Translations under genes and position numbers: made by a program
Part shown: one piece after another, positions 2 through 57,610 of the stretch
Layout: each line of letters starts with the position of its first letter
How positions within the stretch are numbered: the first letter of the stretch is position 1
Notes under the pieces: model-generated
What the model was told of the DNA's origin: nothing
Seen by the model: only the letters and a program-made list of their open reading frames with translations
Databases searched by the model: none
Sequence record: QB031383.1
DNA length: 64,000 nucleotides
Origin: a phage
Reading direction: 5' to 3' (one strand)

Positions 2-154
2 CCAGGTAAGCAACCTAATATGTGGTTGAAATCAGATAAAGAAGGGACCGAAGGAAAATTATGGTTGTATAAATGGGACGATTGGGTTAAAGTAGCTAAA
101 GAGTACGGTGTTTCACCATATATAAGAGATGCAGAAGAGGAGAATGAAGAATGA
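2..154 (+). CDS. 3' end of an upstream CDS running off the window start (hypothetical protein)
   Basis: Open frame from window edge to TGA at 152-154, overlapping the next ATG (ATGA); acidic C-terminus EEENEE. Confidence 0.4.
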   Translation, partial: PGKQPNMWLKSDKEGTEGKLWLYKWDDWVKVAKEYGVSPYIRDAEEENEE

Positions 155-1263
155 CAAGTCCATTTTTAAAAGCAGCTACTGGTGGTCAGAAGAAGCCTGA
201 AATGAGCGTATTTGCTGCAACAACAGATGCAAGTAAATCTGTATTCGCTCCAAGCGTGTTAGATGCCAGTCCTGTTTATGCACCAGCGGCACCGCAAGAA
301 GTTCCAGTTTTGCCTTCTATGACCCGACAAGAGATCGAAGAGATTGGGGCAGAGGCAGGAACAACCTTGCGTTCCTTGAATGCCGAGGTATTAAAACATC
401 AACGTAGTAATCAAGGCGATCAGATGAGTGAACGACTCACAGCTTTGATTAAACAGGCAAAACAACTTGATCCAAACTCTATTAAACAAAGCAAGGGTAT
501 TACTAAACTCATTAAAAAAGTTATGGGTATGAAAGAAGACCTGTTTGGGGAGTTTGATAATGTTAATAACCGTATTGAAGAGTTGGTAAAGAACCTTCAA
601 ATGGATATTCGCAAAGAAGAAGATTCCTTGGTATATCTTGAAAAGCTACATCAAGCTATTGGACAATATGCTGCAAGTTTGAACCGAGATATGCAGCTTC
701 TAACAGCAACCTATGAAAAAGAAGAACAAGCTTTGGCTGCTCTTCCAGAAGATGCAGTAGAACAGCGACAAGTGATCCGAGATACTTTGGATCTTCTGGA
801 GATTCGTATTGCAGATTTAAAAGCATTGCGCCTACTGTGTGTCCAAATGGGACCGCGTGTACAAGGTATGCAAAAAGTTTCTGCAAGCTTAATGCGATCT
901 GCGCGTAACATAGTAAATAATGTTATTCCTGCTTACTCTGCTAACTTCTCAATGTATATTGAGAGCTTACGTCAAATGAAAGCAGCAGAGACGCAGAATA
1001 ACGTTCTTGATGAATTTAACCTGGCAATTAAACTGGGTAGCGATCTTGCCACACAGAATCAGATCGAAGCAGCAGCACTGGCTAACCGTCAAGTGTTGGA
1101 TATTGAAACTCTGCGTCACGATCAGGAAAACTTGGTTAAGATGTTGGAAGAAACTAACCGCATCAATACGGAAGCCCGTGCTGCTCGTGTTGATTATATT
1201 AATGAAGTTCAATCTCTGGAAGACGGGATGGTAGCTGCTGTGAAACGAGGGCTTGGTAAATGA
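151..1263 (+). CDS. telA: TelA-like toxic anion resistance family protein
   Basis: 370 aa ORF, largely helical/coiled-coil composition resembling TelA/KlaA family; stop overlaps next start (ATGA); first gene of a Ter-like cluster. Confidence 0.55.
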   Translation: MTSPFLKAATGGQKKPEMSVFAATTDASKSVFAPSVLDASPVYAPAAPQEVPVLPSMTRQEIEEIGAEAGTTLRSLNAEVLKHQRSNQGDQMSERLTALIKQAKQLDPNSIKQSKGITKLIKKVMGMKEDLFGEFDNVNNRIEELVKNLQMDIRKEEDSLVYLEKLHQAIGQYAASLNRDMQLLTATYEKEEQALAALPEDAVEQRQVIRDTLDLLEIRIADLKALRLLCVQMGPRVQGMQKVSASLMRSARNIVNNVIPAYSANFSMYIESLRQMKAAETQNNVLDEFNLAIKLGSDLATQNQIEAAALANRQVLDIETLRHDQENLVKMLEETNRINTEARAARVDYINEVQSLEDGMVAAVKRGLGK

Positions 1264-1457
1264 GAATCCGTATCTATATAATTGATGAAGACATTGGTGT
1301 CCGTTATGATGACGAAAAACGATTCGCACCGATGGGAGGCATATATCCCCCAAGTGTTCTAGCAGTTTGTCGTGATTGTTATATTTATGAAGGTTGTCGT
1401 AACTTCCGTAAGTTCGAACTGCTTGCAGATATTGACTTCAATGAGGAGGAGGAGTAA
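1260..1457 (+). CDS. hypothetical protein (Cys-rich, acidic C-terminus)
   Basis: 65 aa ORF translationally coupled to the TelA-like gene (ATGA overlap); CxxC-containing. Confidence 0.45.
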   Translation: MRIRIYIIDEDIGVRYDDEKRFAPMGGIYPPSVLAVCRDCYIYEGCRNFRKFELLADIDFNEEEE

Positions 1458-1630
1458 TGAAAATATTACGAGTGAATATTGAAACTGCTTGGTGTGGATG
1501 CAATGAGGTTGTGGATATCGAAATTGAAGATGATATGTCTCAAGAGGATATAGAAGATCTTGCGCACGAAACCTTTCAGGATTATTGTAATTACGGGTTC
1601 CATATTTTAGAGGAGGAAGAAGATGTATAA
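1457..1630 (+). CDS. hypothetical small acidic protein
   Basis: 57 aa ORF not in the track (below 60 aa); ATG overlaps preceding stop (TAATG); ends in EEEEDV. Confidence 0.3.
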   Translation: MKILRVNIETAWCGCNEVVDIEIEDDMSQEDIEDLAHETFQDYCNYGFHILEEEEDV

Positions 1631-2021
1631 TCCAACAGGTATTCTTTTAAAACTTACAGTAACAGACCCTACTCTTTTCACCAAGTTAGCAAGTGGTGAA
1701 GTTTATGAAGTAATGAAAGATGATGACGGTTGGTGTTATCTTTGTGGCTACTTCCTCTGTGATGCAGAAGAGTTAGAATCCATTGTAACTAAAGGTTTTT
1801 ATGAAGAACCAGGGTTCCGTGTGGAAACTACGCAGAAACCTGATACCATTACGTTGACTCGACAAGAACTGATCACAATCATTGAAGATGCTTTTATTGA
1901 TGGCTGGAATACGCAAGATAATGACTGGGGTGGACCCGAAGCTTTTCTGGAACATCATAAAACTTATGGAGACTCTTGTGAAACCACTATAGCTCTTGAT
2001 AATCTGAAGGAGGGTTTGTAA
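1623..2021 (+). CDS. hypothetical protein
   Basis: 132 aa ORF, GGAGG RBS upstream, overlaps neighbours by a few nt as in a coupled operon. Confidence 0.5.
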   Translation: MYNPTGILLKLTVTDPTLFTKLASGEVYEVMKDDDGWCYLCGYFLCDAEELESIVTKGFYEEPGFRVETTQKPDTITLTRQELITIIEDAFIDGWNTQDNDWGGPEAFLEHHKTYGDSCETTIALDNLKEGL

Positions 2022-2584
2022 TGGGTTGTTTTAGCTTTTTGTGCAAAGAATCGGGCAAAGCTGCCCTTTCTACTTCTTTCGACGGATCACCTTGTTATCT
2101 CTTTCTTTTGAAGGACGGTGTTGTTATTGAAGAGATGTATGGCAACTATGATAGTTATGGTTGTGTTTTCTCTGGAAAGGAGGATGAAAACGGCGTTCGT
2201 GAACGGTTCGAATGGGCTATGGATTGGGGTAAGGTTTGTGATTTGATGCATTCCTCAAATCCAAGGGACGGTATCGCTATGGTGCTGGAAGAGTACTTTA
2301 CAGGTGAAATCCCTACAGAACAATCTGACGGAGATCCTAACCAAGGTTGGGGTGATGGTGAAGAAGATCCAGATTGTTTTTTCAGCACAGAAAAGAATAA
2401 GTTTAAACGTGTTGACAACCCTTATCACAAAGTGCATAATACTCTCATTGAAACAGAAGATGACAAGATGGAAATTGAAGAAGATGATCCTCTTGTAACA
2501 CTTCCTATAAGTGAGTTACAAAAGATCACTAAGGAAGCTTACGATTTGGGCTTCAAAATTGGTAGAGGAGGTATGCGTGTTTAG
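2021..2584 (+). CDS. hypothetical protein
   Basis: 187 aa ORF; GAAGGAGG RBS immediately upstream; no recognisable motifs. Confidence 0.5.
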   Translation: MGCFSFLCKESGKAALSTSFDGSPCYLFLLKDGVVIEEMYGNYDSYGCVFSGKEDENGVRERFEWAMDWGKVCDLMHSSNPRDGIAMVLEEYFTGEIPTEQSDGDPNQGWGDGEEDPDCFFSTEKNKFKRVDNPYHKVHNTLIETEDDKMEIEEDDPLVTLPISELQKITKEAYDLGFKIGRGGMRV

Positions 2585-2855
2585 ATTCAATATTCAAGAA
2601 GAAAAAAGTCAGGATTTACCTATTGCTTTCGAAGATCTTGACGTAGGGGCCACATTCATGTATTATGATGCCTATGAAGACGCAGGGTTGGATACCTACC
2701 GTAACTTGGTGTTCATTAAAAATTCCACAAACAGTGCGATTTGTATTAATGGATCACTAGCACAACGAGGCTATACTCATTGCATCCCACCAGATACAAA
2801 TATGGTGGAAGTAGATTTAGAAGTTACCAATATTACACTTAAGAAGGAGAAATAA
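2577..2855 (+). CDS. small protein, paralog A of a duplicated pair
   Basis: GTG start 7 nt after GGAGG; 92 aa; clear similarity to the 3877-4146 product (..DLDVG.TF.Y..A.DE.GLD.. / ..VE.LEVT.ITLK). Confidence 0.5.
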   Translation: MFRFNIQEEKSQDLPIAFEDLDVGATFMYYDAYEDAGLDTYRNLVFIKNSTNSAICINGSLAQRGYTHCIPPDTNMVEVDLEVTNITLKKEK

Positions 2856-2856
2856 T

Positions 2857-3651
2857 ATGTCCGAGAAAATCAGCCTGAAAAAACGTCAAGAAAACCTTGC
2901 TTTCTCTCTGAAAAAGAATAAGAACCTGAATGAAGGTAAGATTGTTCTTCGTGTAGCATGTGCTCTAGATATTTCTGGTAGTATGCATGGTCTATATTCT
3001 AGTGGGGTAGTGAGTGATTTTGTAGGTAAACTGCTTCCTTTTGGTATGCTGTTCGACGATAATCAACAAATTGATATGTGGGCCTTCAATACGAGTTCCC
3101 AAGAGCTTACTCCAGCAACAGCAGATGTTTACGATGACTATGTTGGTAAATGTATGCGTAATGTTCGTATCGGAGGTGGAACAAATTACGCCCCTGTAAT
3201 GGCGGATATCTACGATGAGTATTTTGGCACTGTTACTAAATATATTACCACTAAACAAGTGGTACAAGAGGAGGCTCCAAAGAAAGGCTTCTTTAATCGT
3301 CTGCTTGGTAAAACTGAAACAGTGTCTGTAGAGCGTGAAAAAGTTGTAGCTGTATCTGAACCAGGTGCTGACGTTACCCCTGGTGTTGTATTCTTCCAGA
3401 CGGATGGTGAGAATGGTGATCCTAGTGCTGTTCGTCGTCTTATCGAAGAGAATAAGAATAAACCTATTTATTGGTTCATGGTTGGCGTTGGTAATGAGAA
3501 GTTTGGCTTCCTGAAAGAACTGGCAAATGCTTATGATAATGTTGGTTTTATTGGCATTAAAGATTTAGACTTGACAGATTCAGAGCTTTATGACAAACTC
3601 TTATCTGAAGAGTTCGGAGAGTGGGTTGTTAAAGTAGGTGCTAAAAAATGA
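2857..3651 (+). CDS. vWA domain protein with TerD-like N-terminal start (TerF C-terminal-type vWA)
   Basis: MIDAS motifs present (DISGSM, GGGTNYAPVM, FFQTDGEN); N-terminus MSEKISLKK resembles the TerD-like gene at 4162. Confidence 0.6.
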   Translation: MSEKISLKKRQENLAFSLKKNKNLNEGKIVLRVACALDISGSMHGLYSSGVVSDFVGKLLPFGMLFDDNQQIDMWAFNTSSQELTPATADVYDDYVGKCMRNVRIGGGTNYAPVMADIYDEYFGTVTKYITTKQVVQEEAPKKGFFNRLLGKTETVSVEREKVVAVSEPGADVTPGVVFFQTDGENGDPSAVRRLIEENKNKPIYWFMVGVGNEKFGFLKELANAYDNVGFIGIKDLDLTDSELYDKLLSEEFGEWVVKVGAKK

Positions 3652-3896
3652 TCGACGAGCTTGCCTCTCAAGTCATAGAAAATTATTGGCGCGAGAGAGA
3701 AGCTTTCATTATGCGCAGTCTCAAAGAGTATTTCATTGGGACTGTGCGAATGGAAGATATTGTAAGTAGAGTAGAGATTCATGTATGGCCTGATTATGAA
3801 GAATGGGTTGACAAAGAAAATGAAAATGCTATAATTCTTCGTATATACAAACCGGAGATAACATTAGGAGGAAGAAGTGTTAAACTTCGAAATTGA
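3648..3896 (+). CDS. hypothetical protein
   Basis: 82 aa ORF, start overlaps upstream stop (ATGA). Confidence 0.45.
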   Translation: MIDELASQVIENYWREREAFIMRSLKEYFIGTVRMEDIVSRVEIHVWPDYEEWVDKENENAIILRIYKPEITLGGRSVKLRN

Positions 3897-4146
3897 TGAG
3901 CAAAAAGTAAATAAACGATGCCTTACCATTAAAGATTTGGATGTAGGAGATACTTTCGTCTATGAAAATGCATTTGACGAAAATGGTTTAGACCTTAGTG
4001 AAATCATTGTTTATTTAAAAGTAGATGATGGGGAAAATGATTATTCTGCTGTAGAACTAAACCATCATGCACAATTAGTATCAATCCAAAACACATCTAA
4101 GCTTTTGGAAGTAGAATTGACTGTAACTGGTATTACACTTAAATAA
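3877..4146 (+). CDS. small protein, paralog B of the duplicated pair
   Basis: GTG start after GGAGG; 89 aa; paralogous to 2577-2855. Confidence 0.5.
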   Translation: MLNFEIDEQKVNKRCLTIKDLDVGDTFVYENAFDENGLDLSEIIVYLKVDDGENDYSAVELNHHAQLVSIQNTSKLLEVELTVTGITLK

Positions 4147-4161
4147 TAGAGGAGACAAAAG

Positions 4162-4764
4162 ATGACTGATAAAATTTCCCTGAAAAAAGGCTCTAGCGAA
4201 AAAATTTCCCTGAAGAAAGTTGCTCCGGCTCTGAAAGAACTGCGCCTGGAATTCTCTTGGAAATCTGATTCTAAACTGGATCTGGATGTAAGTGCACTGG
4301 TTTGTCGTCACAATGCCGCTGGCAATCCTGAAATGCTGTCTGCACGTCATCTGGTTTGCTATGCTAACAAGTTTGATCCTGAACGTTCTACCTTCGCTGG
4401 TGACGATGTTCGTGATGGAACTGGCAGCATGGAGCAGATTGATATTACTCTGGCTAAAATCTCTCCTGATGCACAAGAGATTGCCTTTGTTCTGACCATT
4501 GATGATGATACAGGTCTGAAACGTTTTGGTCATGCTTCTGAAGGTATGCTTAAAATCTTCGACTCCGAGCGCAATGTGGAAATTCTGGATTTTGACTTCC
4601 TGGCTCCTGAAGTAGCTGGCAACACAATCTGCCACGTGGCTTCCTTGGTTCGTGAAGATGGGGAATGGAAGCTGAAAGCATATGGTGTAGGTAAAGCTGG
4701 TCTGGATATTTGTGATGTGGTGATGGCCTTCGGTGGTAAAAAAGAATGGTATGAATGTCCATAA
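4162..4764 (+). CDS. terD: TerD-domain stress response protein
   Basis: 200 aa; TerD-like features (N-terminal KISLKKG repeats, LDLDVSALV, GDD..DG acidic Ca-binding-type motifs); strong RBS GAGGAG. Confidence 0.65.
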   Translation: MTDKISLKKGSSEKISLKKVAPALKELRLEFSWKSDSKLDLDVSALVCRHNAAGNPEMLSARHLVCYANKFDPERSTFAGDDVRDGTGSMEQIDITLAKISPDAQEIAFVLTIDDDTGLKRFGHASEGMLKIFDSERNVEILDFDFLAPEVAGNTICHVASLVREDGEWKLKAYGVGKAGLDICDVVMAFGGKKEWYECP

Positions 4765-4863: not shown

Positions 4864-5385
4864 TTGCTGATAAAAAACTTTGTAACAGTTGCGTTACTAT
4901 CCTTAACTGCTTTTACATTTACACCTGTTGTGGCGAAAGCCGAAGCTGCAAACGTAAAAACCGCTAAAGTAGTTCACAAATGTACAAAGCAATATAATGA
5001 TAAAATTCTATTAGCTTGTGCAATTTACGCAGAAGGTCGAGGTCTGGGTAAAAAAGGAATGAATGCCGTTGGGAATGTGGTAATCAACAGACGAAATGAT
5101 ACCTACTTCCCTAACACAGTCAGAGGAGTCTTGTTCCAGAAAGGGCAATTCTCATATGCGAAAACTTTTAACGTAACAGAGAAAGATAAGTGGCAGGAAG
5201 CAAAAGCAATAGCGGAGCGTTTACTTTATTTAGAGAAACATTTTCCTGAATTGCGGTCTGTTTTAGATGTTACTAAAGGTGCCCTATACTTCAAGAAACG
5301 GAATATAAGGACAAACTGGGAACGTGATATGCGTCTTGTTTATCGAGATAAAGTGCATGGTTTCTATCTACCAAAGGGGAGTTAA
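4864..5385 (+). CDS. secreted cell wall hydrolase, SleB-like (Hydrolase_2 family); candidate endolysin
   Basis: TTG start after AAAGGAGG; N-terminal signal/SAR-like hydrophobic segment ending AKAEA; SleB-like motifs CAIYAEGRG, VVINRRND, VLFQKGQFSY. Confidence 0.6.
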   Translation: MLIKNFVTVALLSLTAFTFTPVVAKAEAANVKTAKVVHKCTKQYNDKILLACAIYAEGRGLGKKGMNAVGNVVINRRNDTYFPNTVRGVLFQKGQFSYAKTFNVTEKDKWQEAKAIAERLLYLEKHFPELRSVLDVTKGALYFKKRNIRTNWERDMRLVYRDKVHGFYLPKGS

Positions 5386-5671: not shown

Positions 5672-5901
5672 TGGGAGAAGTCATTGAAGTCAATTTTCGC
5701 ACTAAACAGAAAGTGCAAAAATATGTCGTTATTAAAAACATTTGCGTTGTCTGCTTCAATACAGTAATATACGACTCACGACGCGGAGAAAACGAAAATG
5801 AACCTTACATTGAAATTTCTAAGAACAAAGGTCAATGTATTTGTAAGAACTGTGCAGTAGCTATTAAGGAGGTTGTAAATGAAAACGCTTGGGACCAATG
5901 A
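5671..5901 (+). CDS. hypothetical Zn-ribbon protein
   Basis: ATG at 5671 overlapping upstream stop; two CxxC pairs (CVVC, CICKNC). Confidence 0.4.
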   Translation: MGEVIEVNFRTKQKVQKYVVIKNICVVCFNTVIYDSRRGENENEPYIEISKNKGQCICKNCAVAIKEVVNENAWDQ

Positions 5902-6070
5902 AACTGGCGAAATCTCTCTTCAAGAAGTGACAAACGACAAGCTGATTAAACTACGGGATGTAGCTCGTGACCATCTCCAAGAATCTTTTAAAGAATATAT
6001 GGAAGCACGAGATCGTGTGATCCAGATTCAACAAGAAATGATTAAACGTGGGATTGTAGCTGACAGTTAA
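5879..6070 (+). CDS. hypothetical protein
   Basis: 63 aa ORF with GGAGG RBS. Confidence 0.4.
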   Translation: MKTLGTNETGEISLQEVTNDKLIKLRDVARDHLQESFKEYMEARDRVIQIQQEMIKRGIVADS

Positions 6071-6086
6071 TATAACGGAGGGGAGA

Positions 6087-6650
6087 ATGATTTATTATAT
6101 TACTCCCTATCTGACAGGAAATATCGGCAAGGCTATCAATGAAGCTATTGCCGTTCTTCCAGATGATAGTTGGGTGTGTTTAAGAGATACCGATACAATG
6201 TTCCTCCTACCTGATCAACCATCTATGCTTGAAGAGCTTGTTATGTCAAACCCGCCTTTTGATGTAATAGGTGCAACTTGTAACAGGTTAGGCAGTGGTT
6301 ATCAGCTTTTCTCTAACCAAATTAACGATGATCCAGATATTCTAAACCATATAGAATATGCTAAGATTGCAAGAGAATATCATAAAGTAAATGTTGAAGA
6401 AGTTCCTTTCGGAACACCTCTGGCAGGTTTCTTTTTGCTTTTTAGAAAATCATTGTGGAATGAAATTCCTTTCGAAGAAAAATCTATCCAATTCGACTTA
6501 ATTTTCTCTCGCGCTTTACATGAAAAAGGAAAGAGGTTAGGATTGATGCGGGGAATGTATCTGTTTCACATTTACAGATTAGGTCAAACAAATCCTCAAC
6601 GGTCTATACATCATTTATTACACTGTCATGATCACAGTAAAACTATTTAG
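6087..6650 (+). CDS. putative glycosyltransferase (GT-A-like)
   Basis: 187 aa; DxD-type motif in CLRDTDTMF; GGAGGGGAG RBS. Confidence 0.4.
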   Translation: MIYYITPYLTGNIGKAINEAIAVLPDDSWVCLRDTDTMFLLPDQPSMLEELVMSNPPFDVIGATCNRLGSGYQLFSNQINDDPDILNHIEYAKIAREYHKVNVEEVPFGTPLAGFFLLFRKSLWNEIPFEEKSIQFDLIFSRALHEKGKRLGLMRGMYLFHIYRLGQTNPQRSIHHLLHCHDHSKTI

Positions 6651-6658
6651 GAGAGAAA

Positions 6659-7342
6659 ATGGAAAATATTAAAATCGGAGTGGGTGTTATCACTGTAGGT
6701 GTCCGTCCGCTTAAAGACTACCTTGTAACAGATCCACGTGCAGATTTTCGAGTATTCAACGATCCAGATCGTAAAGGTGTAGCTTATGCCAGGAATGAAC
6801 TTATGCACCAGTTTTATGAAGAAGGTTATGATTATTGGTTTATTTTTGACGACGATTGCTACCCAGTCATGGAGGGATGGGAAACATATTTTGTAGATCA
6901 AGCTGTCTCTGGAGGATGGGATTTCTTTGGTATGCCGGAGTACTTCAAAGATAAAGTTGTTGGAAGCAAAGGAGAAGTTATTCTCTGGGAACTTGCAATG
7001 TGTCAATTTGCAATGTATTCTCGTGCCGTTGTTGAAAAGATGGGTTATTTCCGTCCTTACACTCACGGTTATGGTTTTGAAGATGCTGAATGGGGACACC
7101 GTTTACAAGCTGCTGGTTTGAATCATGGTATTCAGGCAACACCTTGTCCACTTCGTATCATGGCTTATATCCACCCAGACGATGTTTTTGGCAACAATCC
7201 TATGCCTTTTGCTAACCTGACAAAAGAAGAGAAAGAAGCTGCTATTGGGATTAACTGGGAAGAATATAAAGCATCTTTAGAGGATATTAAAAATGGGAAA
7301 ATCCGAATTTCCTATGAGGAGGCACTAGCACATGTCAAATAA
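6659..7342 (+). CDS. putative glycosyltransferase (GT-A fold, DXD motif)
   Basis: 227 aa; acidic DXD motif WFIFDDDCYP typical of nucleotide-sugar transferases. Confidence 0.5.
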   Translation: MENIKIGVGVITVGVRPLKDYLVTDPRADFRVFNDPDRKGVAYARNELMHQFYEEGYDYWFIFDDDCYPVMEGWETYFVDQAVSGGWDFFGMPEYFKDKVVGSKGEVILWELAMCQFAMYSRAVVEKMGYFRPYTHGYGFEDAEWGHRLQAAGLNHGIQATPCPLRIMAYIHPDDVFGNNPMPFANLTKEEKEAAIGINWEEYKASLEDIKNGKIRISYEEALAHVK

Positions 7343-8279
7343 AAAATGGTCTAAACTAAAAATTGATGCAAAACCTCACAGCGGTTGTGACTATCATCGT
7401 ATTGTTATACCATTTAACAACAATAATATTCAACCTAAGAAAGATGTTGTTGTGTTTAACCGTATCCACTCTAAAGGTGCAGAATACGTTTTATCTTTGA
7501 AACGCCAAGGTGTTAAGATTGTTGTAGACTTAGATGATTTTTACCAACTTAATCCAGAGCATTATTTGGCAAGTTTATACGAGTCAAACACTCATGCTAT
7601 TGTGGCTATGGTTAAGCTTGCTGATGTGGTTATTGTGACTACGGAATACTTGGCATATAAGATCCGTCACTTAAATAGGAATGTTGTTGTGATCCGAAAT
7701 GCACTTCCTTTTGATAGTGGACAATTCACTTTGTCAAATGATCGTTCATCCGGTACCCCTGTTGTATGGGCTGGCGGTGCTAGTCACGAACCCGATTTAC
7801 GACTAGTCTCTAATACTTTCGATGATGAACTTCTTACTATTGCGGGATATGAAGCATCGCAGAGCATCACGGGACAAGAGTGGATTAAGATTCGCAGAAA
7901 TTTACCAAATGCCAAATATAAAGCTGCTGTAAAAGATTTAGATAATTACATGAGTGTTTACGAAAGTCATGCTATTGCTATAGCTCCTTTGGTAGATAAT
8001 GATTTTAATAATTGCAAAAGTAATCTCAAAATCCTGGAAGCTGGGGCAAAAGGTATTCCGATTGTTTGTTCTAAGGTGTTACCTTATTTTAACCCTGTAG
8101 ATGCTCGTGCTGTTGCTTACGCAGAGAATAAAGCAGAATGGCATTACGAAATTGTTAAGCTTCTTCGCAATCCAAACTATCGGGAAGATCGTGGCTTGTT
8201 CTTGGCTGAACATGTTCGAACACATTATAATCTGGCAGATGCAAATGAGTTGCGACGCCAGGTTATTGAAAGTTTGTAG
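7332..8279 (+). CDS. glycosyltransferase-like protein, tandem paralog 1 (possible GT-B C-terminal motif)
   Basis: 315 aa; paralogous to 8287-9231 (CDYHRIVIPF / CDFHRVVLPY; SNLKILEAGAKGIPIVCS / SNLKILEAGAKGLPLICS). Confidence 0.45.
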   Translation: MSNKKWSKLKIDAKPHSGCDYHRIVIPFNNNNIQPKKDVVVFNRIHSKGAEYVLSLKRQGVKIVVDLDDFYQLNPEHYLASLYESNTHAIVAMVKLADVVIVTTEYLAYKIRHLNRNVVVIRNALPFDSGQFTLSNDRSSGTPVVWAGGASHEPDLRLVSNTFDDELLTIAGYEASQSITGQEWIKIRRNLPNAKYKAAVKDLDNYMSVYESHAIAIAPLVDNDFNNCKSNLKILEAGAKGIPIVCSKVLPYFNPVDARAVAYAENKAEWHYEIVKLLRNPNYREDRGLFLAEHVRTHYNLADANELRRQVIESL

Positions 8280-8286
8280 GTGAAGT

Positions 8287-9231
8287 ATGGGACAAATAAT
8301 TCTTGACAATCGTAACGGAATCAATTATAGTGTCTGCGATTTCCATAGGGTAGTGCTGCCTTACTCAAGGCAGTTCTCTTCACAACCTAAACACAACGTT
8401 TTCGTTTTTAACGGAGTGCCAACAAAAGGTAAAGAGGGCTTTTTAGCCCTTAAAAACCTAGGCTTTAAAATGGTTATGGATTTGGATGACTCTTTAGTTA
8501 TTCCAAAAGGACACATGTTAGAAGGTATTTTTGAATCAGGTATTCGTGAACATTTAAAATGGTTTTTAGAGCACAGTGATCTTGTTACAACTACGACACC
8601 TGCCTTGCAAGTTGAACTTTCACAATACAATGATAATGTGCACATAATCCCTAATGGACTTCCTTACGATGAAGGTCAATTTGTGTTGACCCGTGATCGC
8701 TACTCCAAAACTCCATTAGTCTGGGCTGGAAGTGAAACACATAAACAAGATTTGGCTATCTTGCCCGATTTTGGTAAAGATCTTACAATATGTGGTTTTC
8801 GTAGGGATTCTGAAGTTTTAAGTAGTCGTGAATGGTCTGTAATCAGGGAAAATGTAGCACCAACTTGTGTTTATGAAGGTGTAAGACCATATGCCAACTA
8901 CATGGAATCTTACGATGGTCATCAAATCAGTCTTGCGCCATTGATTGATAACGTGTTTAATAATGCAAAAAGCAATCTTAAAATTCTTGAGGCAGGTGCT
9001 AAGGGTTTACCTTTGATCTGTTCTCCTCGTGAGAATTATCATACACAAGAGTTTAAAGATCTGTTATTCTTTGCTGAAACACCTTCCGAGTGGAAAGATA
9101 TTACGGAATACTTATTAAGTGCTCCCGATGTTTGCATGGAGAAAGGATTAGCATTAGCTAAGTATGTCAGGACTCATTATCACATTGATGTGTTGAATGA
9201 GCGTCGTAGACTTTTATTTGAGGAGCTATAA
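8287..9231 (+). CDS. glycosyltransferase-like protein, tandem paralog 2
   Basis: 314 aa; same length and conserved blocks as 7332-8279. Confidence 0.45.
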   Translation: MGQIILDNRNGINYSVCDFHRVVLPYSRQFSSQPKHNVFVFNGVPTKGKEGFLALKNLGFKMVMDLDDSLVIPKGHMLEGIFESGIREHLKWFLEHSDLVTTTTPALQVELSQYNDNVHIIPNGLPYDEGQFVLTRDRYSKTPLVWAGSETHKQDLAILPDFGKDLTICGFRRDSEVLSSREWSVIRENVAPTCVYEGVRPYANYMESYDGHQISLAPLIDNVFNNAKSNLKILEAGAKGLPLICSPRENYHTQEFKDLLFFAETPSEWKDITEYLLSAPDVCMEKGLALAKYVRTHYHIDVLNERRRLLFEEL

Positions 9232-9509
9232 TGATTAACACTTTTGATTTTGAATACACCACTCGTAACGGGAAAGCTTTAGTCGTGGAGGTGGATTACT
9301 ATTATGAAGAGCCTAACCCGCTTTCTCGTGAAAGTGATTGGGATTACCACGGAGGGCTTTTAATTGACGGTATTCGTTTTTACGAAGGCTCTACAGAAGT
9401 TTTTGAAAAAGATTTAAATGTAACTGTAGCAGAAATTGCTTTCCAATTTAGAAAGCACATGGAAGAACTAGAAGCAGAATATATGATGGAGACTAACGAA
9501 CCATTTTAA
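9231..9509 (+). CDS. hypothetical protein
   Basis: 92 aa ORF, ATG overlaps upstream stop (TAATGA). Confidence 0.45.
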   Translation: MINTFDFEYTTRNGKALVVEVDYYYEEPNPLSRESDWDYHGGLLIDGIRFYEGSTEVFEKDLNVTVAEIAFQFRKHMEELEAEYMMETNEPF

Positions 9510-9521
9510 CAGGAGAACAAA

Positions 9522-11300
9522 GTGTCGCACATTATAACTAAATATGGATTTGATGTTGATCTTAGCAAGGAAGGGCATACAGGTTGTCCGCGCTGCATGA
9601 AAAATGGCAAGGATCGCTCTCGTAATAACCTGATGGTTTATGGATTAGATTCTAATGGAGAGCATAAAGGTGCTAAGTGCTTTGCGTGTGAATACACTAT
9701 TCCTAGCGTAGAATGGTTACGAGAAAATGGTGAAGTTTTAGAAGAAGAGGAGGAGATTGTGGGTTCGGAATTTAATAAACAGATTCATCGTAAAATTGTT
9801 CAAGAAACATCAACCAACCCACGTGGTTATCGAGGCATTAAAGAAAAAGTTTCATCTTTCTATGGTGTTCGTTATGAATACCGTCAGGAAGGGGATCAGA
9901 TGGTAGTAGAAAGTTGTTTATATCCAACTACCATCGGTAAAGAACTGGTTGGTTTTAAGCGTCGTATTCATCCTAAAGATTTCAGTAAACCTATTGGTCA
10001 AGTAGGTAAAGATGTAGATCTTTTTGGACAAATTCGTTTTGCAGACCGTTCTCATACTGTTGTAATTACAGGTGGTGAACACGATGCTCTGGCAGCTTAT
10101 CAGATGCTGTCTGAAAACTTGGACAACAAATATGAACTTCCAGCAGTAGTTAGTGGCACAACTGGTGAAACCAGTATGTATAAACAAGTTCAGGCACAAT
10201 ATCCTTTCTTTGAAAAATTTAAGAAGATTATTGTTTGCATGGACAATGACAAAGCGGGTAATGAGGCATTTGAAAATATTGTTAAGGTGCTGCCTCGTAA
10301 CAAAGTCTACCGTATGCAGATGGATCTTAAGGATGCTAATCAGTATCTGGAAGAAGGTCGTGCAAAAGATTTCGTAAAAGCTTTTTGGAGTGCTCGTCTA
10401 TACACCCCAGCAGGTGTTTATGCTTCTAATGTCTTGTATGAAGCTGCATTAGAATGCTTGGAATCCAAGATGATTACCTTGCCTCCTTTTATGCGTGTTG
10501 CTGCAAATATGCTGGGTGGTGGTTTAGTAGAGGAAGAGATTACAGTTATCCTGGCAAAGACCAGTATCGGTAAAACTTTGATGGTGAACGAGATCACCAA
10601 ACATATTATCGTTGCACACCCAGAACATACCCTCGGTATTCTGTCATTGGAAGCAACTTATAAGAAATATTCTCGTAACCTGTTGTCCTCTTTCCTGCAC
10701 ATTCCTCTGCACAGGAAAACACCGGAAGAGAAATTTCAAATCTTGGAAGAGAATAAAGAAAAAATCCTAGATTTTTACGAAAGAGAAGATGGATCACCAC
10801 GTTTTTATGTGTGTGATGATCGTGGAGCAGATGTGGAGTCTATCAAAGAAAAAGTTTTGGAGATGATCATCTATTTTGGAGTAACAATTCTTGTTATCGA
10901 CCCTTATTCTGATTTGCTTTCTGGTATGGATGTTCAAGCCCAGGAAGAGTTAGCAACATGGTTGAAGCGCATCATGAAAGAGTATGCTATAACTATTATC
11001 GTCATCTCACACGTTAAGAAATCGGCTAATGGTGGCAATGAACACTTAACAGAGGACGATGCAATGGGTAGTAGTTTCTTGGCTAAAGGTGCTGGTATTA
11101 CCTTGGCTTTGGAACGAGATAAAGCCGCTGAAGACCCTGTAGAACGAAATACAACTCATTGCTTTATCCTAAAAAACCGTGAGTTCTCGGAAACTGGTCC
11201 GGCAGGGCAGTTTTACTATGACATTAGAACTGCAACTCTGCATGACAAAGAACAGTATTTCAACAATCCTGCTAATTTGCCTACGGATAGCAACTATTAA
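9522..11300 (+). CDS. bifunctional DNA primase/helicase (T7 gp4-like)
   Basis: GTG start after GGAGAA; N-terminal Zn-ribbon (CPRCM...CFACEY), TOPRIM-like middle, C-terminal DnaB/RecA-like ATPase with Walker A AKTSIGKT. Confidence 0.8.
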   Translation: MSHIITKYGFDVDLSKEGHTGCPRCMKNGKDRSRNNLMVYGLDSNGEHKGAKCFACEYTIPSVEWLRENGEVLEEEEEIVGSEFNKQIHRKIVQETSTNPRGYRGIKEKVSSFYGVRYEYRQEGDQMVVESCLYPTTIGKELVGFKRRIHPKDFSKPIGQVGKDVDLFGQIRFADRSHTVVITGGEHDALAAYQMLSENLDNKYELPAVVSGTTGETSMYKQVQAQYPFFEKFKKIIVCMDNDKAGNEAFENIVKVLPRNKVYRMQMDLKDANQYLEEGRAKDFVKAFWSARLYTPAGVYASNVLYEAALECLESKMITLPPFMRVAANMLGGGLVEEEITVILAKTSIGKTLMVNEITKHIIVAHPEHTLGILSLEATYKKYSRNLLSSFLHIPLHRKTPEEKFQILEENKEKILDFYEREDGSPRFYVCDDRGADVESIKEKVLEMIIYFGVTILVIDPYSDLLSGMDVQAQEELATWLKRIMKEYAITIIVISHVKKSANGGNEHLTEDDAMGSSFLAKGAGITLALERDKAAEDPVERNTTHCFILKNREFSETGPAGQFYYDIRTATLHDKEQYFNNPANLPTDSNY

Positions 11301-11833: not shown

Positions 11834-12628
11834 TTGAGCAAGTTGAACACACTTGATCAATATTACACTAACCCCGCTTATGCGGGGTTCTTATGTGATA
11901 AGATCAAAGAAATTTTTGGAGAGGAAGCTAACTACGTAGAACCATCTGCGGGAGAAGGGGCTTTCTCTTCTTGTTTTAAAAACATAACTTCTTTTGATAT
12001 TGACCCTAAGTTTGAAGATTGTATTGAAGCAGATTTTTTAGCTCAATCTGTTGAGTCTGTTGGTAGTGTAACTGCTTTTGTCGGTAATCCTCCATTTGGA
12101 AAAAATGCTAGTCTTGCCATTAAATTCTTTAACCATTGTGCTGAAATGCTGGATAACGAAGGTGGTATTTGTTTTATCTTGCCTCGCACATTTCAAAAAA
12201 TCTTTTTTGCACACAAACTAAATCCCCATATGCATCTTTTTTACGAAGAAGAATGTCCAAAAGGATCTTTTATTCTTCATGGAGAACCTTGGGATGTTCC
12301 TTGTGTATTCCAGATATGGATTAAACGCAACGAGAAGCGTTCTCCCGTTGTTTTAGGAGAGAATCGACTATTCGTATTAGGTAACAGTAAAGACTACGAT
12401 ATAGCCGTTAGGAGAGCGGGAGCAAGTGCAGGTAAAGTGTTATCAGAAGAAGATTCTTTATCTGAAGCATCTACCTATTTTTTAAAAGCCTTGACTTCTG
12501 ATCTTAAAACGCGTATCATTGAGGCTTACCCGTTACTTAAAGCTGAAGCTAGTAAAACTGCGGGAGTAAGAAGTTTAAGTTTAAAAGAACTTCAGTGGGT
12601 TCTGGAGAACATTAGAAAGGAGGAATAG
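11834..12628 (+). CDS. DNA methyltransferase (probable N6-adenine class; motif I before motif IV)
   Basis: TTG start after AGGAGGA; SAM-binding motif I EPSAGEGAF and catalytic motif IV NPPFG. Confidence 0.6.
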   Translation: MSKLNTLDQYYTNPAYAGFLCDKIKEIFGEEANYVEPSAGEGAFSSCFKNITSFDIDPKFEDCIEADFLAQSVESVGSVTAFVGNPPFGKNASLAIKFFNHCAEMLDNEGGICFILPRTFQKIFFAHKLNPHMHLFYEEECPKGSFILHGEPWDVPCVFQIWIKRNEKRSPVVLGENRLFVLGNSKDYDIAVRRAGASAGKVLSEEDSLSEASTYFLKALTSDLKTRIIEAYPLLKAEASKTAGVRSLSLKELQWVLENIRKEE

Positions 12629-15225
12629 TGAGTAAGTTTACATGGGATATTGAAGCAAACGGATTGTTGAATAATGACACTATCGATTATTTAGCTAGTC
12701 CTTATCGTCTCAAAGACACATTTCAAATGCACTGTATTGTCTTAGAGAACCATGAAACAGGAGAAATAGTAGCTTTCCACGATGGCCCTAAATACATCTT
12801 TGATGGGCGTCCTTATGAAGAGTCAGATGGTAAATACACATATGTTCTTAAAGAGTATGTGGCGCAAGATTACACACATTTTCAACTAAAAGATTTCCCA
12901 GACTTTATTAATCATGAAGGTTATTTTAAAGATAAGCCTGAATATCTGGTTGAAATGGCTGTGGCTCACAACGGTATCAACTATGACTGGTTGGCTACAA
13001 AACTGTTTTATGGCTTAGATTACAGTGTTAAATATAATACGTGGGGCAAAAATAAGGTAAAACTTATTGACTCCTTGATTTTGAGTAAAGTGTTAAACCC
13101 AGATCGAAAGATTGAAGGCAAATCAGGACATAGCTTGGCAGCACTTTCTCGAAAGGCAGGGGGTGATGTAAAAATAGATTTCCGTAAAGAGATTCCAGAA
13201 GAAGATCGATTTAAGACTTTTGCTGCTGATATGCTTTATTACTGTATCTATGACAACAAAGCCAATACGAGCGTATATAATTACCTTATGGAAGAATGGG
13301 GTGATTATGATAAATGGGAAGGTCCATTTGAACTTGAACAACGTGTAGCAGACATTATTACACGCCAGGAACACCGTGGGTTTGCTTTTAACATGAAGCA
13401 AGCAGAAGAGAACCTTGCTTTTTTGGATGCAGAAATGGAGCGTCTTCGTTTACTCGTTGAGCCTATTTTGCCACCTAAACCAGCAACAAAAGGTTATCTT
13501 AAGGCTTTTATTCCACCTAAGTTGCAAATTAAAAAGAACTTAGAGCCAACTAACCATATGATCAATTTTGCTAAGAAACATGATGGTCATTTGGAAGAGA
13601 GGGATGGCGATTGGTGGTTAGTTATGTTGGGGAAAGAGTGGAAACTGCCAGTTGCAGCAGATGAGCCTCTATGTGATCCTAACATTCCTGCAACATTGAA
13701 CGATACAACCCATATTAAAAACTGGCTTGTAGGATTAGGTTGGGTACCGTCTGAATATAAAGATAAAGACTTGACTCTTAAATCTGGCACCAAGATTAAA
13801 AAGAGCGAGGAAGAACTTCAGAAAGGTATTCGAGCTTACGTTGAGCAAACTCTATCTTCTAATTTTTGTCAGGATCGTTGTGATCATCTGGAGTGCACAC
13901 CGGAAACCTTGGAAAGGAAGATTCAAGAGCGTATAGCAAAAGGTAAAGGTCGCGGTCTTAAAGTATTGACTAACCCGTGTTTTACCAAAGGTCAGGAAAA
14001 AGAAATTTGTCCTAACCTGCAAGCTTTGGGTGAGAAGTTTCCTTATGCTACACAGATTGTAGAATACTTAACGTATAAGCATCGTAGGAACTCTATTTTA
14101 GGTGGCGGTGCTGATTGGGAAGAAGATGAAGAAGATCAAGAATACGATAAAGGTTTCTTAGCCGCAGTAAGGGCTGATGGGCGTATTCCTACCCCAGCCG
14201 CTACATGTGATGCTGCAACCTCTCGTATGAAGCATAGATCTGTAGCTAATATTCCTCGTGTCACATCTTTGTTTGGATGGGAGATGCGTAACTTGTTTGG
14301 TGTAGAGGTTCCTAAATACTTCCAGATCGGCTACGACTTCGACTCTTTGGAAGCAAAAATTGAATCACACTACTGTTGGCGGTACGAGCCGGAGCCACAC
14401 GAATATTGTAACGCTCTGTTGTTAGAGAAACCTAACGATGTTCACACAATGATGGCAAAACGTATCACTGAAACTATTGGACGTAAATTTGAACGTAGTC
14501 CTGCTAAATCTGTTAAGTATGGTATTACCTATGGTGCACAAGCCGACAAGGTTGCTAAAACAATTGGTAGCGATAAGTTTACAGGTCAATTGGTGTTTGA
14601 TGCTTTCTGGGAAGCTGCATTCCCATTGGCGCGTCTTAAAGAACGTTTAAACGATTTTTGGGTTAAGACTGGTAAACAATATGTTTTGGGTATTGACGGT
14701 CGTAAGGTTCCTACTCGTTCTGCTCACGCGATTCTTAACTCTCTGTTCCAAAGTGGTGGGGTTATCTGTGCTAAACGTGCAATGGTTATTTATGACGACA
14801 TGATCGAAGAAGAAGGACTAAGTGTTGACTTCTTTAAAGATGACTGGAAGAATAAAGATTTCGTGCAACAAATGATTGCATATCACGATGAAGCCCAGCT
14901 TGAAGTTTCTCGTAACCTTGTAGAATTTAAATGGTTTTCACCTGAATCATTAGGTTGGAAGAAAGTAGACGATCCTGAAGAACAAAAGAAAATTGATAAA
15001 GAATGCCTTGCTAAAGTCGAAGAATGGAAGCATAATAAGGAAAAAGAGACAGGGCAAATTTGGGCTAACATTCATGAATCTCCCAAAGGTGGATGGTTTA
15101 CAGCCTATAGTCGGGCAGGTGAACTTGCTGCTTTAGCTGTTACTAAGGCTGGAGAATTTTACAATCTTAACGTTCAGCTTACTGCCGGATATGATGTGGG
15201 TAATTCCTGGGCCACATGTCACTAA
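12628..15225 (+). CDS. DNA polymerase, family A, with N-terminal 3'-5' exonuclease
   Basis: GTG start; Exo I motif WDIEANG; Pol I-type motifs: motif B-like KSVKYGITYGAQ, motif C AYHDEAQLEV. Confidence 0.85.
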   Translation: MSKFTWDIEANGLLNNDTIDYLASPYRLKDTFQMHCIVLENHETGEIVAFHDGPKYIFDGRPYEESDGKYTYVLKEYVAQDYTHFQLKDFPDFINHEGYFKDKPEYLVEMAVAHNGINYDWLATKLFYGLDYSVKYNTWGKNKVKLIDSLILSKVLNPDRKIEGKSGHSLAALSRKAGGDVKIDFRKEIPEEDRFKTFAADMLYYCIYDNKANTSVYNYLMEEWGDYDKWEGPFELEQRVADIITRQEHRGFAFNMKQAEENLAFLDAEMERLRLLVEPILPPKPATKGYLKAFIPPKLQIKKNLEPTNHMINFAKKHDGHLEERDGDWWLVMLGKEWKLPVAADEPLCDPNIPATLNDTTHIKNWLVGLGWVPSEYKDKDLTLKSGTKIKKSEEELQKGIRAYVEQTLSSNFCQDRCDHLECTPETLERKIQERIAKGKGRGLKVLTNPCFTKGQEKEICPNLQALGEKFPYATQIVEYLTYKHRRNSILGGGADWEEDEEDQEYDKGFLAAVRADGRIPTPAATCDAATSRMKHRSVANIPRVTSLFGWEMRNLFGVEVPKYFQIGYDFDSLEAKIESHYCWRYEPEPHEYCNALLLEKPNDVHTMMAKRITETIGRKFERSPAKSVKYGITYGAQADKVAKTIGSDKFTGQLVFDAFWEAAFPLARLKERLNDFWVKTGKQYVLGIDGRKVPTRSAHAILNSLFQSGGVICAKRAMVIYDDMIEEEGLSVDFFKDDWKNKDFVQQMIAYHDEAQLEVSRNLVEFKWFSPESLGWKKVDDPEEQKKIDKECLAKVEEWKHNKEKETGQIWANIHESPKGGWFTAYSRAGELAALAVTKAGEFYNLNVQLTAGYDVGNSWATCH

Positions 15226-56471: not shown

Positions 56472-56550
56472 TGGAGGCGGGAATCGGATTTGAACCGATG
56501 ATCTCCAGCATATGAAACTGGCGAGGACGACCAGACTCCTCTATCCCGCT
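56472..56550 (-). tRNA. tRNA-Met (anticodon CAT)
   Basis: Hand-folded cloverleaf: T-arm ATCGG-TTCAAAT-CCGAT, anticodon loop TTCATAT, CCA encoded; 1-72 position appears mismatched (A/C). Confidence 0.55.
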
Positions 56551-56552
56551 AT

Positions 56553-56627
56553 TATGTATCCCGTGCTGGATTCGAACCAGCATCACAATAAGCTGTGGAA
56601 CTCTTATCCTGTAAGTCTAACGGGAAA
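56553..56627 (-). ncRNA. tRNA-like element, anticodon arm not resolvable (possible pseudo-tRNA)
   Basis: Canonical T-arm GCTGG-TTCGAAT-CCAGC and 6-bp acceptor, packed between two tRNAs, but no standard D/anticodon arms. Confidence 0.3.
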
Positions 56628-56628
56628 C

Positions 56629-56702
56629 TGGTTGTTTCGACAAGAATCGAACTTGTGTCTCACGATTATCAGTCGTGGGTTCTACCATTGAACTACGAAA
56701 CA
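56629..56702 (-). tRNA. tRNA-Ile (anticodon GAT)
   Basis: Acceptor TGTTTCG/CGAAACA, D-arm GTTC-AATGGTA-GAAC, anticodon stem CACGA/TCGTG with loop CTGATAA, T-loop TTCGATT, CCA encoded. Confidence 0.7.
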
Positions 56703-56708
56703 TTTGAT

Positions 56709-56785
56709 TGGTCGGAATTGCAGGATTCGAACCTGCGACCCTACGCTCCCAAAGCGTATGCTCTACCAAACTGAGCTAAATTCCG
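56709..56785 (-). tRNA. tRNA-Pro (anticodon TGG)
   Basis: Acceptor CGGAATT/AATTCCG, D-arm GCTC-AGTTTGGTA-GAGC, anticodon loop TTTGGGA, T-arm GCAGG-TTCGAAT-CCTGC, CCA encoded. Confidence 0.75.
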
Positions 56786-56790
56786 TTATA

Positions 56791-56866
56791 TGGCTGGTCT
56801 GTCTGGATTTGAACCAAACCTACGACAGTCAAAGTGTCGTGTGCTACCGGACTACACTACAAACCA
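56791..56866 (-). tRNA. tRNA-Gln (anticodon TTG)
   Basis: Acceptor with U1-A72, anticodon stem CGACA/TGTCG with loop CTTTGAC, T-loop TTCAAAT, discriminator G, CCA encoded. Confidence 0.7.
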
Positions 56867-56964
56867 ATAAATCATTTAATGAAGGGCAACCAGAAGAGGT
56901 GTGAGAGAAGGAGAAAACCATGAGTAAAAGAGAAAGTTTTCTGGCAACCCTTTATTAAATAATT

Positions 56965-57038
56965 TGGAGCGTTCTACGAGGATCGAACTCGTGCCGCCGA
57001 CTTGGAAGGACGGAATGCTACCGCTACACCAAGAACGC
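56965..57038 (-). tRNA. tRNA-Gly (anticodon TCC)
   Basis: Acceptor GCGTTCT/AGAACGC, anticodon loop CTTCCAA, T-arm ACGAG-TTCGATC-CTCGT, discriminator U, CCA encoded. Confidence 0.6.
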
Positions 57039-57049
57039 CCTACATCTTT

Positions 57050-57079
57050 ACTATACTACATTTTACTATTGGTTGTCAA
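57050..57079 (-). promoter_or_regulatory. promoter-like element (aCTATTGACAa, -10-like TATAGT) directly upstream of tRNA-Gly
   Basis: Minus strand TTGACA-18-TATAGT; one of four copies of the same -35-containing motif. Confidence 0.5.
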
Positions 57080-57352
57080 TAGTTTTATTGAGCGGGACAG
57101 TGACGAGTATCCCATTGGGTGACTAGCCCTACGTTCGGTAAGCTAACTTAAAATAATACAAAACCAAAGTCAAATATTATTCTTCGTTGCTGTCGATGGG
57201 AGAGCCGCTTCTTCTTTTGCCCCATCCAACCCTACTCCGGTCAAGTTTCAGGTAACTCTTTTTGTGATCAACACAATACTAAGAACACTGTCTTTCGAGC
57301 AGACCTTGTGCACAGGATACGACGATCAATCACAGTGCTCTTAATGTTGTGT

Positions 57353-57427
57353 TGGTGCTCCCACTCTGAATCGAACAGAGATCCACGGATTACAAAACCG
57401 TTGTAATAGCCATTATACTATAGGAGC
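57353..57427 (-). tRNA. tRNA-Thr (anticodon TGT)
   Basis: Acceptor GCTCCTA/TGGGAGC (one G-U), anticodon loop TTTGTAA, T-arm CTCTG-TTCGATT-CAGAG, CCA encoded. Confidence 0.6.
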
Positions 57428-57433
57428 AAAGCT

Positions 57434-57511
57434 GGGACTCGGCAGGATTCGATACCTGCAATTCCAGAAGCCTCTTGGCGACTGGGGGGTTTACCTTAAC
57501 TCTACAAGTCC
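57434..57511 (-). ncRNA. tRNA-like element with 8-nt T-loop and no recognisable anticodon arm (possible pseudo-tRNA)
   Basis: 7-bp acceptor GGACTTG/CGAGTCC and T-arm GCAGG-TATCGAAT-CCTGC; internal region forms a long imperfect hairpin instead. Confidence 0.3.
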
Positions 57512-57518
57512 ATAATTC

Positions 57519-57604: not shown

Positions 57605-57610
57605 TTAATT

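Follow-up and report, generated by a model that had tools for sequence, protein, structure and literature searches.

What do four adjacent glycosyltransferase-like genes do in the replication region of a phage genome, and onto what do their products transfer sugar? The question is raised by a block of four open reading frames (ORF1 to ORF4) in a 64,000-nucleotide stretch of phage DNA from sequence record QB031383.1, hereafter called the window. A first-pass annotation of the window offered two functions for the block, a multi-step sugar hypermodification of DNA and a remodelling of host glycans. Here, we argue tentatively for a third option that was not part of that annotation. The explanation that we consider best, with a probability of roughly 0.4 for the whole, is that soluble glycosyltransferases (GTs), supplied with sugar by the rml genes for deoxythymidine diphosphate (dTDP)-L-rhamnose, assemble a glycan in four steps on an acceptor other than DNA, most likely a virion protein. 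The less specific proposition, that the genes belong to a real multi-GT, rml-linked pathway serving something other than bulk DNA modification, is likely to be correct.

By megablast of positions 5800-9600, the window derives from a Phapecoctavirus, a phAPEC8-like myophage of the subfamily Stephanstirmvirinae. The search returned 68 phage records, 65 of which match across the entire query at 95-99% identity, all of them phAPEC8-like phapecoctaviruses. The window is 98-99% identical to over 60 phages in GenBank. Close relatives include vB_EcoM_DE16, tuntematon, phAPEC8 and vB_Ec-G1, the last being 98.8% identical to the window phage.

Four adjacent glycosyltransferase genes

The four ORFs are present on the + strand where the first-pass annotation had placed them (Table 1), and their translations carry the motifs that it had quoted: RDTDTM in ORF1 (GT-A1), FIFDDDCYP in ORF2 (GT-A2), and CDYHR or CDFHR together with SNLKILEAGAKG in ORF3 and ORF4 (GT-B copies 1 and 2). 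Residues D34, D36 and H161 of ORF1 are invariant across 20 homologues with identities down to 45%, and F63, D64, D65 and D66 of ORF2 across 18 homologues with identities down to 36%; in ORF3 and ORF4, C19, H22, R23 and the string S230-N-L-K-x-L-E236-x-G are invariant across 45 homologues. Judged by this conservation, the motifs are family signatures and not chance strings.

Comparison with profiles and structures, the check that had been proposed for these genes, finds GT folds directly for three of the proteins. ORF1 forms one Rossmann-like alpha/beta/alpha domain that is superposable on known GT-A enzymes, and its DxD sequence is a metal/nucleotide-sugar motif conserved throughout the family. 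ORF3 and ORF4, which are 41% identical, each show the GT-B, GT4-like arrangement of two Rossmann domains superposable on GT4 enzymes, with a nucleotide-sugar motif at the C-terminal end that includes a conserved Glu; ORF4 also passes the Pfam cut-off for Glyco_trans_1_2 (25.2 bits, cut-off 25). In structure, ORF3 comes closest to GT4 enzymes that act on small molecules, namely sucrose-phosphate synthase, BshA, tetrahydrobiopterin glucosyltransferase and SenB. When ORF3 was compared with viral structures by Foldseek, the matches were generic GTs of phages and giant viruses, and the first 50 included no named DNA GT, which is weak evidence as many of the entries are unnamed.

ORF2 is connected to known GTs through its relatives. 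It matches phrog_2456 with an E value of 1e-78, and its own Pfam scores are all below threshold and confined to the DDD region (TET-associated glycosyltransferase or TAGT, 19.5 bits against a cut-off of 27.5; GT2, 13.3; GT7C, 13.6). Members of its family, linked to it through the family profile with E values of 1e-17 to 1e-19 (loci L039 and L043), do pass, with 42.6 bits for Glycos_transf_2 and 29.7 bits for Glyco_transf_7C, and by way of these relatives ORF2 is provisionally classed as a GT2-like GT-A enzyme.

We conclude that the four ORFs encode genuine glycosyltransferases, two GT-A enzymes (ORF2 provisionally so) and two tandem GT-B paralogues, much as the first-pass annotation had described them; RefSeq and several GenBank records label them 'glycosyltransferase (x4)'. 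All four lack transmembrane segments, in that no 19-residue window exceeds 1.65 on the Kyte-Doolittle scale. No NCBIfam model matches any of them, and profiles of the ORF1, ORF2 and ORF3 families gave only spurious matches against all PDB sequences; their superfamilies are known, but the families within them are uncharacterised and have no solved relatives. The idea that ORF1 and ORF2 are recent paralogues was rejected, profile-profile comparison of the two families having detected no relationship between them (probability 0.1%).

A conserved cluster with a mobile core

In the sister genus Justusliebigvirus, which includes phi92 and phages of the BASEL collection such as PaulScherrer (Bas60), a four-gene block with 66-77% amino acid identity occupies the same slot upstream of the primase-helicase gene, and the cluster is common to all Stephanstirmvirinae. 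When did the second GT-B copy arise? ORF3 is 42-53% identical to the single-copy GT-B of other phages. ORF4 is 77% identical to its PaulScherrer counterpart (bas60_0048) but only 35-38% identical to all single-copy homologues, so the duplication is older than the split between Phapecoctavirus and Justusliebigvirus, and both copies have been retained. Distant metagenomic relatives carry GT-A1, GT-A2, a single GT-B and a small protein of 85-92 residues, followed by the primase-helicase. GT-A2 and GT-B copy 1 are most likely the ancestral core pair.

Full-length GT-B homologues with 40-55% identity are abundant. GT-B relatives occur on at least 581 IMG/VR contigs, and of 79 loci retrieved, 24 have an ORF2-like gene called beside GT-B. 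In lambdoid-type prophages of Pseudomonas silvicola and Enterobacter huaxiensis, the GT-B homologue is directly preceded by a 215-residue ORF2 homologue (38-43% identity), and the two genes belong to the late operon, flanked by lysis genes and the gene for the small terminase subunit; a late-operon position between lysis and terminase genes is also seen in metagenomic phages. The E. huaxiensis prophage (locus L007, 7354-9921) also has, independently, a gene for an RmlB-like dTDP-glucose 4,6-dehydratase directly upstream of the pair. The GT-A2/GT-B pair is a mobile cassette of many phages and prophages, usually adjoining terminase genes. The three-gene insert of E. huaxiensis, whose neighbours in the late operon are the endolysin region and the HNH/terminase genes, resembles a minimal form of the Stephanstirmvirinae sugar system.

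Among the Pfam neighbours of distant GT-B homologues (10 loci), the large terminase subunit is found in eight loci, GT2 in five and hexapeptide acyltransferases in three, along with uridine diphosphate (UDP)-glucose dehydrogenase, a formyltransferase, an FkbM methyltransferase, DNA methylases, NinG and one Mom-family gene. Those of distant GT-A1 homologues (seven loci) are portal (5), capsid (5), terminase families (4 matches) and GT2 (4), along with Methyltransf_24 (3), a nucleoside diphosphate (NDP)-sugar 4,6-dehydratase (2), a DegT aminotransferase and a polysaccharide deacetylase. A 407-residue fusion protein of Cellulophaga phage phi12:1, GT-A1-like in its C-terminal half, is encoded between portal/minor capsid and protease/major capsid genes; in a podovirus from spring water, a GT cluster of several enzymes has the major capsid gene on one side and a tail gene on the other; and Streptomyces phage Zuko has UDP-glucose dehydrogenase and a GT right before terminase. 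Moreover, GT-A1 often forms fusion proteins with further GT domains and with a methyltransferase, which fits the expectation for oligosaccharide synthesis. A chromosomal homologue from Trinickia was set aside as uninformative, its context near an invasin-like gene being non-phage.

The pre-terminase slot of small phages holds other genes as well. In 10 sampled IMG/VR loci (L046-L091) DNA methylases of the C5 and N6/N4 types also occur in it, as does a Mom-family protein in one of the loci, and modification genes in general seem to accumulate at this site.

A probable phage-encoded supply of dTDP-L-rhamnose

Which sugar might these enzymes use? Phage vB_Ec-G1 encodes RmlD, RmlC, RmlA and RmlB (Pfam E values of 1e-67 to 1e-80) about 75 kb from its GT cluster; the rml operon lies beyond the 64-kb window, and its presence in the window phage is deduced from vB_Ec-G1. 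In the phage database, RmlC and the GT cluster have virtually one taxonomic spread: Escherichia (106 entries), Klebsiella (8-9), Campylobacter as labelled (5), Phapecoctavirus (3) and Justusliebigvirus (3). Olsen et al. (2020) reported the full dTDP-rhamnose pathway in all phapecoctaviruses and in phi92-like phages (PMC7552041).

Is phage DNA the acceptor?

Glycosylation of DNA is suggested by the surroundings of the cluster: the GTs would place rhamnose and/or other sugars on the bases of replicating phage DNA, which would thereby evade nucleases. Pfam and PHROG confirm the primase-helicase, methyltransferase-like and polymerase neighbours named in the first-pass annotation, and the cluster is packed tightly against them with no convincing promoter or terminator between. 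T4 shows the same layout, its b-gt and gene 42 being flanked by gp41 and gp43, and a phage NDP-sugar pathway encoded in the nucleotide-metabolism region parallels the UDP-arabinose pathway of RB69 and DLP3. In addition, ORF2 has weak local matches to TAGT and to the PHROG of beta-glucosyl-hydroxymethylcytosine-alpha-glucosyltransferase (PHROG-842), and the idea of DNA glycosylation was already put forward by Olsen et al. (PMC7552041). Even so, we rank DNA third among the acceptors and regard it as improbable, for all known DNA glycosylation pathways need a hydroxyl-bearing base, generated through a ThyA homologue or TET/JBP. No ThyA-family match was found by tblastn with T4 gp42 in the window and the vB_Ec-G1 loci, which jointly amount to a whole genome, although this single query is not exhaustive; nor is there a TET/JBP protein among the genome annotations. 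The sole thymidylate synthase is a divergent ThyX, none of 79 viral loci has a ThyA homologue within 10 kb of GT-B, and the flanks examined around the cassette in lambdoid prophages hold no base-hydroxylating or base-modifying partner. The TAGT match of ORF2 covers 37 residues around the DDD motif, and both it and the PHROG-842 match were rejected as signs of DNA modification, being sub-threshold and limited to a generic DDD loop. ORF1, ORF2 and ORF4 are acidic (isoelectric points of 4.9-6.0, against 9.05 for the T4 beta-glucosyltransferase), but the isoelectric point was demoted to weak evidence as a proxy for DNA binding.

Restriction data on relatives of the window phage point the same way. 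In the collection of Trotereau et al., HincII failed to cut only the DNA of ESCO10 and of two T-even relatives, ESCO47 (Dhakavirus) and ESCO58 (Tequatrovirus), and it did cut that of five Phapecoctavirus and three Justusliebigvirus isolates (PMC10269720); the window itself has 63 HincII sites. Moreover, the Justusliebigvirus phages Bas60-62, which bear the orthologous cluster, are described as 'exceptionally susceptible' to six restriction-modification systems of types I, II and III (PMC8594841). It is therefore very unlikely that the phage DNA has a base replaced in bulk. Glycosylation at sparse or specific sites (rhamnosylation, for example), on canonical or methylated bases and without a hydroxylated or hydroxymethylated precursor, would leave HincII cutting and sensitivity to the tested restriction-modification systems intact; it would require a chemistry not yet described, and we give it a very slim chance.

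How does the cluster compare with established DNA-glycosylating systems? The T4 alpha- and beta-glucosyltransferases, which give DNA its glucosyl-hmC, have no sequence similarity to the four GTs. In T4, b-gt adjoins the gene 42 hydroxymethylase, whereas none was found beside the cluster here; T-even-type DNA is HincII-resistant, whereas that of the window's phage group is cut; and the presence of two GT-A enzymes and a dTDP-rhamnose pathway does not imply a chemistry of UDP-glucose only. The arabinosyl-5-hydroxycytosine system of RB69 and DLP3 (PMC13326640) is more similar, in that it combines several sequential GT-B (GT4-like) transferases with a phage NDP-sugar pathway, and its GTs have identical structural neighbours (6kih, BshA). 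However, that system is defined by GTs clustered with a dCTPase, a nucleotide kinase and a ThyA homologue that binds flavin (the 5hodCMP synthase), and its DNA strongly resists restriction; apart from an unlinked MazG-like gene and a small kinase, these partners were not found here. The TAGT (PF20691) systems share a small phage GT-A enzyme, TAGT being the best, albeit sub-threshold, Pfam match of ORF2, but in this genome no dioxygenase of the TET/JBP type is annotated and the methyltransferase near the cluster looks N6-adenine/Eco57I-like, not C5-cytosine.

The ThyX-like protein of vB_Ec-G1 (locus L003, 21315-22313; 332 residues) is very divergent and a putative thymidylate synthase, its NCBIfam score of 31 bits falling short of the equivalog cut-off, 88. 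Its gene adjoins those of a deoxyribonucleotidase and a small nucleotide kinase.

Host envelope glycans and other soluble acceptors

The other function proposed in the first-pass annotation fares better than DNA hypermodification, and we rank it second, as an unlikely but serious competitor. From the cytoplasmic side of the membrane, the GTs would modify lipid-linked intermediates or the lipopolysaccharide (LPS) core, with O-antigen, enterobacterial common antigen, NGR or colanic acid as possible targets, and would either mask receptors, thereby excluding superinfecting phages and keeping progeny off cell debris, or redirect sugar flux. L-rhamnose is a typical surface sugar, the enzyme families of the cluster fit envelope glycan remodelling, these phages use surface glycans and LPS core glucose as receptors, and early or middle expression would suit exclusion; indeed, host-surface modification has been proposed for phage ZCKP1 (PMC6141743). 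The proposal is harder to reconcile with soluble enzymes that have no flippase, polymerase or GtrA/B/C-type partner by Pfam and PHROG. The O-antigen conversion modules of the gtrABC type are likewise phage GT systems that alter surface glycans used as receptors, but they consist of membrane proteins expressed from a prophage, whereas here four soluble GTs belong to a lytic phage; neither a membrane-embedded GtrA flippase, nor a GtrB bactoprenol GT, nor a GtrC was found by hydropathy, Pfam or PHROG. The homologous prophage cassette lies in the late lytic operon, between lysis and terminase genes, and would stay silent in lysogens, where true conversion genes are expressed. Head genes surround the remote homologues, and the remodelling of LPS already present in the outer membrane would probably be slow for one lytic cycle.

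Perhaps the acceptor is some other soluble molecule: a host protein, a small molecule (a metabolite or a signal in defence, for example) or an RNA, for instance through the queuosine base of a tRNA. All four GTs are soluble, the structural neighbours of ORF3 act on small molecules, and the 10 phage tRNA genes include a tRNA-Asn(GTT), the anticodon of which is of the queuosine type. Nothing in the data is specific to any of these acceptors, however; four GTs, together with the tailoring enzymes of homologous loci, point to an oligosaccharide and not to a single glycoside, and the recurrent association with head and packaging genes would go unexplained. We therefore consider this class of acceptor improbable, below both DNA and the host envelope.

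Virion proteins as the favoured acceptor

A virion protein is ranked first as acceptor because homologous cassettes are found in late operons and in head modules, accompanied by the sugar-tailoring enzymes that typify glycan synthesis, and because no route to a glycosylatable base was found; the choice is a tentative one, held at somewhat less than even odds. The contexts of the remote homologues point more to virion proteins than to either of the functions first proposed. How might such a pathway work? Four soluble cytoplasmic GTs, two GT-A and two GT-B, would act sequentially to build a short oligosaccharide on an acceptor other than DNA. At least one step would use dTDP-L-rhamnose made by the phage RmlABCD enzymes, and the remaining steps would draw on NDP-sugars of the host. 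GT-A2 and GT-B copy 1 would form the core of the system, with further residues added by GT-A1 and GT-B copy 2, and the acceptor would be one or more virion proteins, which would give the capsid or tail a 'glycan coat'. The sequential action, the sugar donors and the acceptor are all matters that we infer.

There is precedent for such a coat in other phages. Capsid and tail proteins of the mycobacteriophages Che8, Corndog and Myrna are reportedly glycosylated by phage GTs (Freeman et al. 2023). As in that system, where soluble phage GTs are often accompanied by methyltransferases, remote homologues of GT-A1 and GT-B occur in head and packaging modules with FkbM or Methyltransf_24, acyltransferases and NDP-sugar enzymes. 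Unlike that system, the cluster here lies far from the structural genes and is not matched by Ser/Thr-rich acceptor tails, and the likeness is one of gene content and context. The precedent of phage virion glycosylation is echoed elsewhere (PMC11256854).

Several observations weigh against glycosylation of the virion. The cluster sits in the replication block, approximately 8.6 kb from the closest tail gene, and the DNA beta-glucosyltransferase gene of T4 likewise lies between helicase and polymerase genes. No Ser/Thr-rich tail (at least 50% S+T in 30 residues) occurs in the structural proteins of the window, and the literature search turned up no evidence for glycosylated virion proteins in phi92, phAPEC8 or other Stephanstirmvirinae. 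The fold neighbours of ORF3 are those published for proven DNA arabinosyl- and glucosyl-transferases, so the GT-B structure is neutral as to the acceptor. Since DNA methylases and Mom also occupy the pre-terminase slot, that context is not exclusive to protein glycosylation. Finally, rhamnose is probably linked to the cluster, but the link is one of co-occurrence, and ESCO37 retains the GT cluster without RmlA and RmlB, two enzymes for which host equivalents exist.

Gene layout around the cluster

The coordinates of the cluster and of the genes downstream are collected in Table 1. The spacings ORF1-ORF2, ORF2-ORF3 and ORF3-ORF4 are 8, -11 and 7 nucleotides; the stop codon of ORF4 overlaps the start of the phrog_4240 gene (ATGA), which ends 12 nucleotides before the primase-helicase gene. 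These gaps of 7-12 nucleotides and overlaps suggest that ORF1 through the primase-helicase gene form a single transcription unit. A scan for promoters and terminators gave counts not above those in shuffled sequence, with none convincing within the GT cluster, and its support for co-transcription is weak.

Table 1. Glycosyltransferase cluster and downstream genes, in window coordinates
Feature	Position	Strand	Description
GT-A1 (ORF1)	6087-6650	+	187 residues, soluble, GT-A fold, DxD motif D34-T-D36, conserved His161
GT-A2 (ORF2)	6659-7342	+	227 residues, GT2-like, invariant F-D-D-D; cassette partner of GT-B in other phages
GT-B copy 1 (ORF3)	7332-8279	+	315 residues, GT4-like; orthologue of the single-copy GT-B of other phages
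GT-B copy 2 (ORF4)	8287-9231	+	314 residues, diverged paralogue of copy 1
Acidic protein, phrog_4240	9231-9509	+	92 residues, isoelectric point 4.2, N-terminal FDFEY motif
DnaB/Toprim primase-helicase	9522-11300		downstream of GT cluster
DNA-methyltransferase-like gene	11834-12628		downstream of primase-helicase
Family A DNA polymerase	12628-15225	+	865 residues

The small acidic protein keeps a constant slot between the last GT-B gene and the primase-helicase gene, both in PaulScherrer and in the distant three-GT relatives (loci L011 and L012, approximately 50% identical). It matches no family of known function in Pfam, PHROG or NCBIfam; it may be part of the glycosylation module or may belong to the adjoining replication module.

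Upstream of the cluster, a Hydrolase_2 cell-wall hydrolase gene (4864-5385, +), annotated 'endolysin' in relatives, is grouped with the + strand GT/replication block and not with the late genes, which leaves the expression timing of the block ambiguous. Further upstream lies a tellurite-resistance-like set (151-4764, +) that comprises TelA (151-1263), a vWA-TerF-like gene (2857-3651) and TerD (4162-4764). The order TelA, vWA-TerF, TerD, Hydrolase_2 recurs in one of the distant metagenomic relatives (L011), and why a lytic phage has the set is unexplained.

The polymerase gene of the window is an intein-less allele. That of vB_Ec-G1 encodes 1110 residues, with a 245-residue insertion after residue 583 and flanking segments 100% and 99.6% identical to the window polymerase, and the equivalent insertion in PaulScherrer carries an intein annotation. 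The 10 tRNA genes (56472-58395, -; two Met, and Ile, Pro, Gln, Gly, Thr, Asn, Ser and Arg) are set in an otherwise ORF-poor stretch, with structural genes on one side and the next + strand block on the other. The sign of the GC skew flips at approximately 18 kb (about 17.8 kb) and 60 kb, the points at which the window switches between + strand early/replication genes and - strand structural genes.

Implications

The cluster is an uncharacterised phage glycosylation module that is real, conserved and experimentally tractable, and its existence is no surprise to specialists. Both functions offered in the first-pass annotation had already been published for this phage group (PMC7552041; PMC6141743). 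The literature found, which leaves the phi92 genome paper outside its scope, contains speculation on these genes and no direct experiments. What is new here is the recognition of a cluster that extends throughout the Stephanstirmvirinae and matches the spread of the rml genes, of a mobile GT-A2/GT-B cassette, and of GT-A1 relatives among portal and capsid genes.

The Stephanstirmvirinae are broad-host-range coliphages that have been isolated repeatedly and are candidates for therapy, and eight of their genes, four for GTs and four for Rml enzymes, serve sugar chemistry. A module that acts on DNA or the host envelope would be relevant to how these phages escape host defences or exclude superinfecting phages. 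Were the virion its target, phage virion glycosylation would extend from actinobacteriophages to enterobacterial phages, with consequences for immunogenicity, stability and therapeutic clearance. That this would be the first virion glycan coat of a coliphage, built by a GT-A/GT-B cassette mobile among hundreds of phages, is possible but more likely wrong than right. Considering that the GT-A2/GT-B cassette is widespread beside terminase genes in unrelated phages, a result obtained with one tractable E. coli phage could annotate hundreds of genes.

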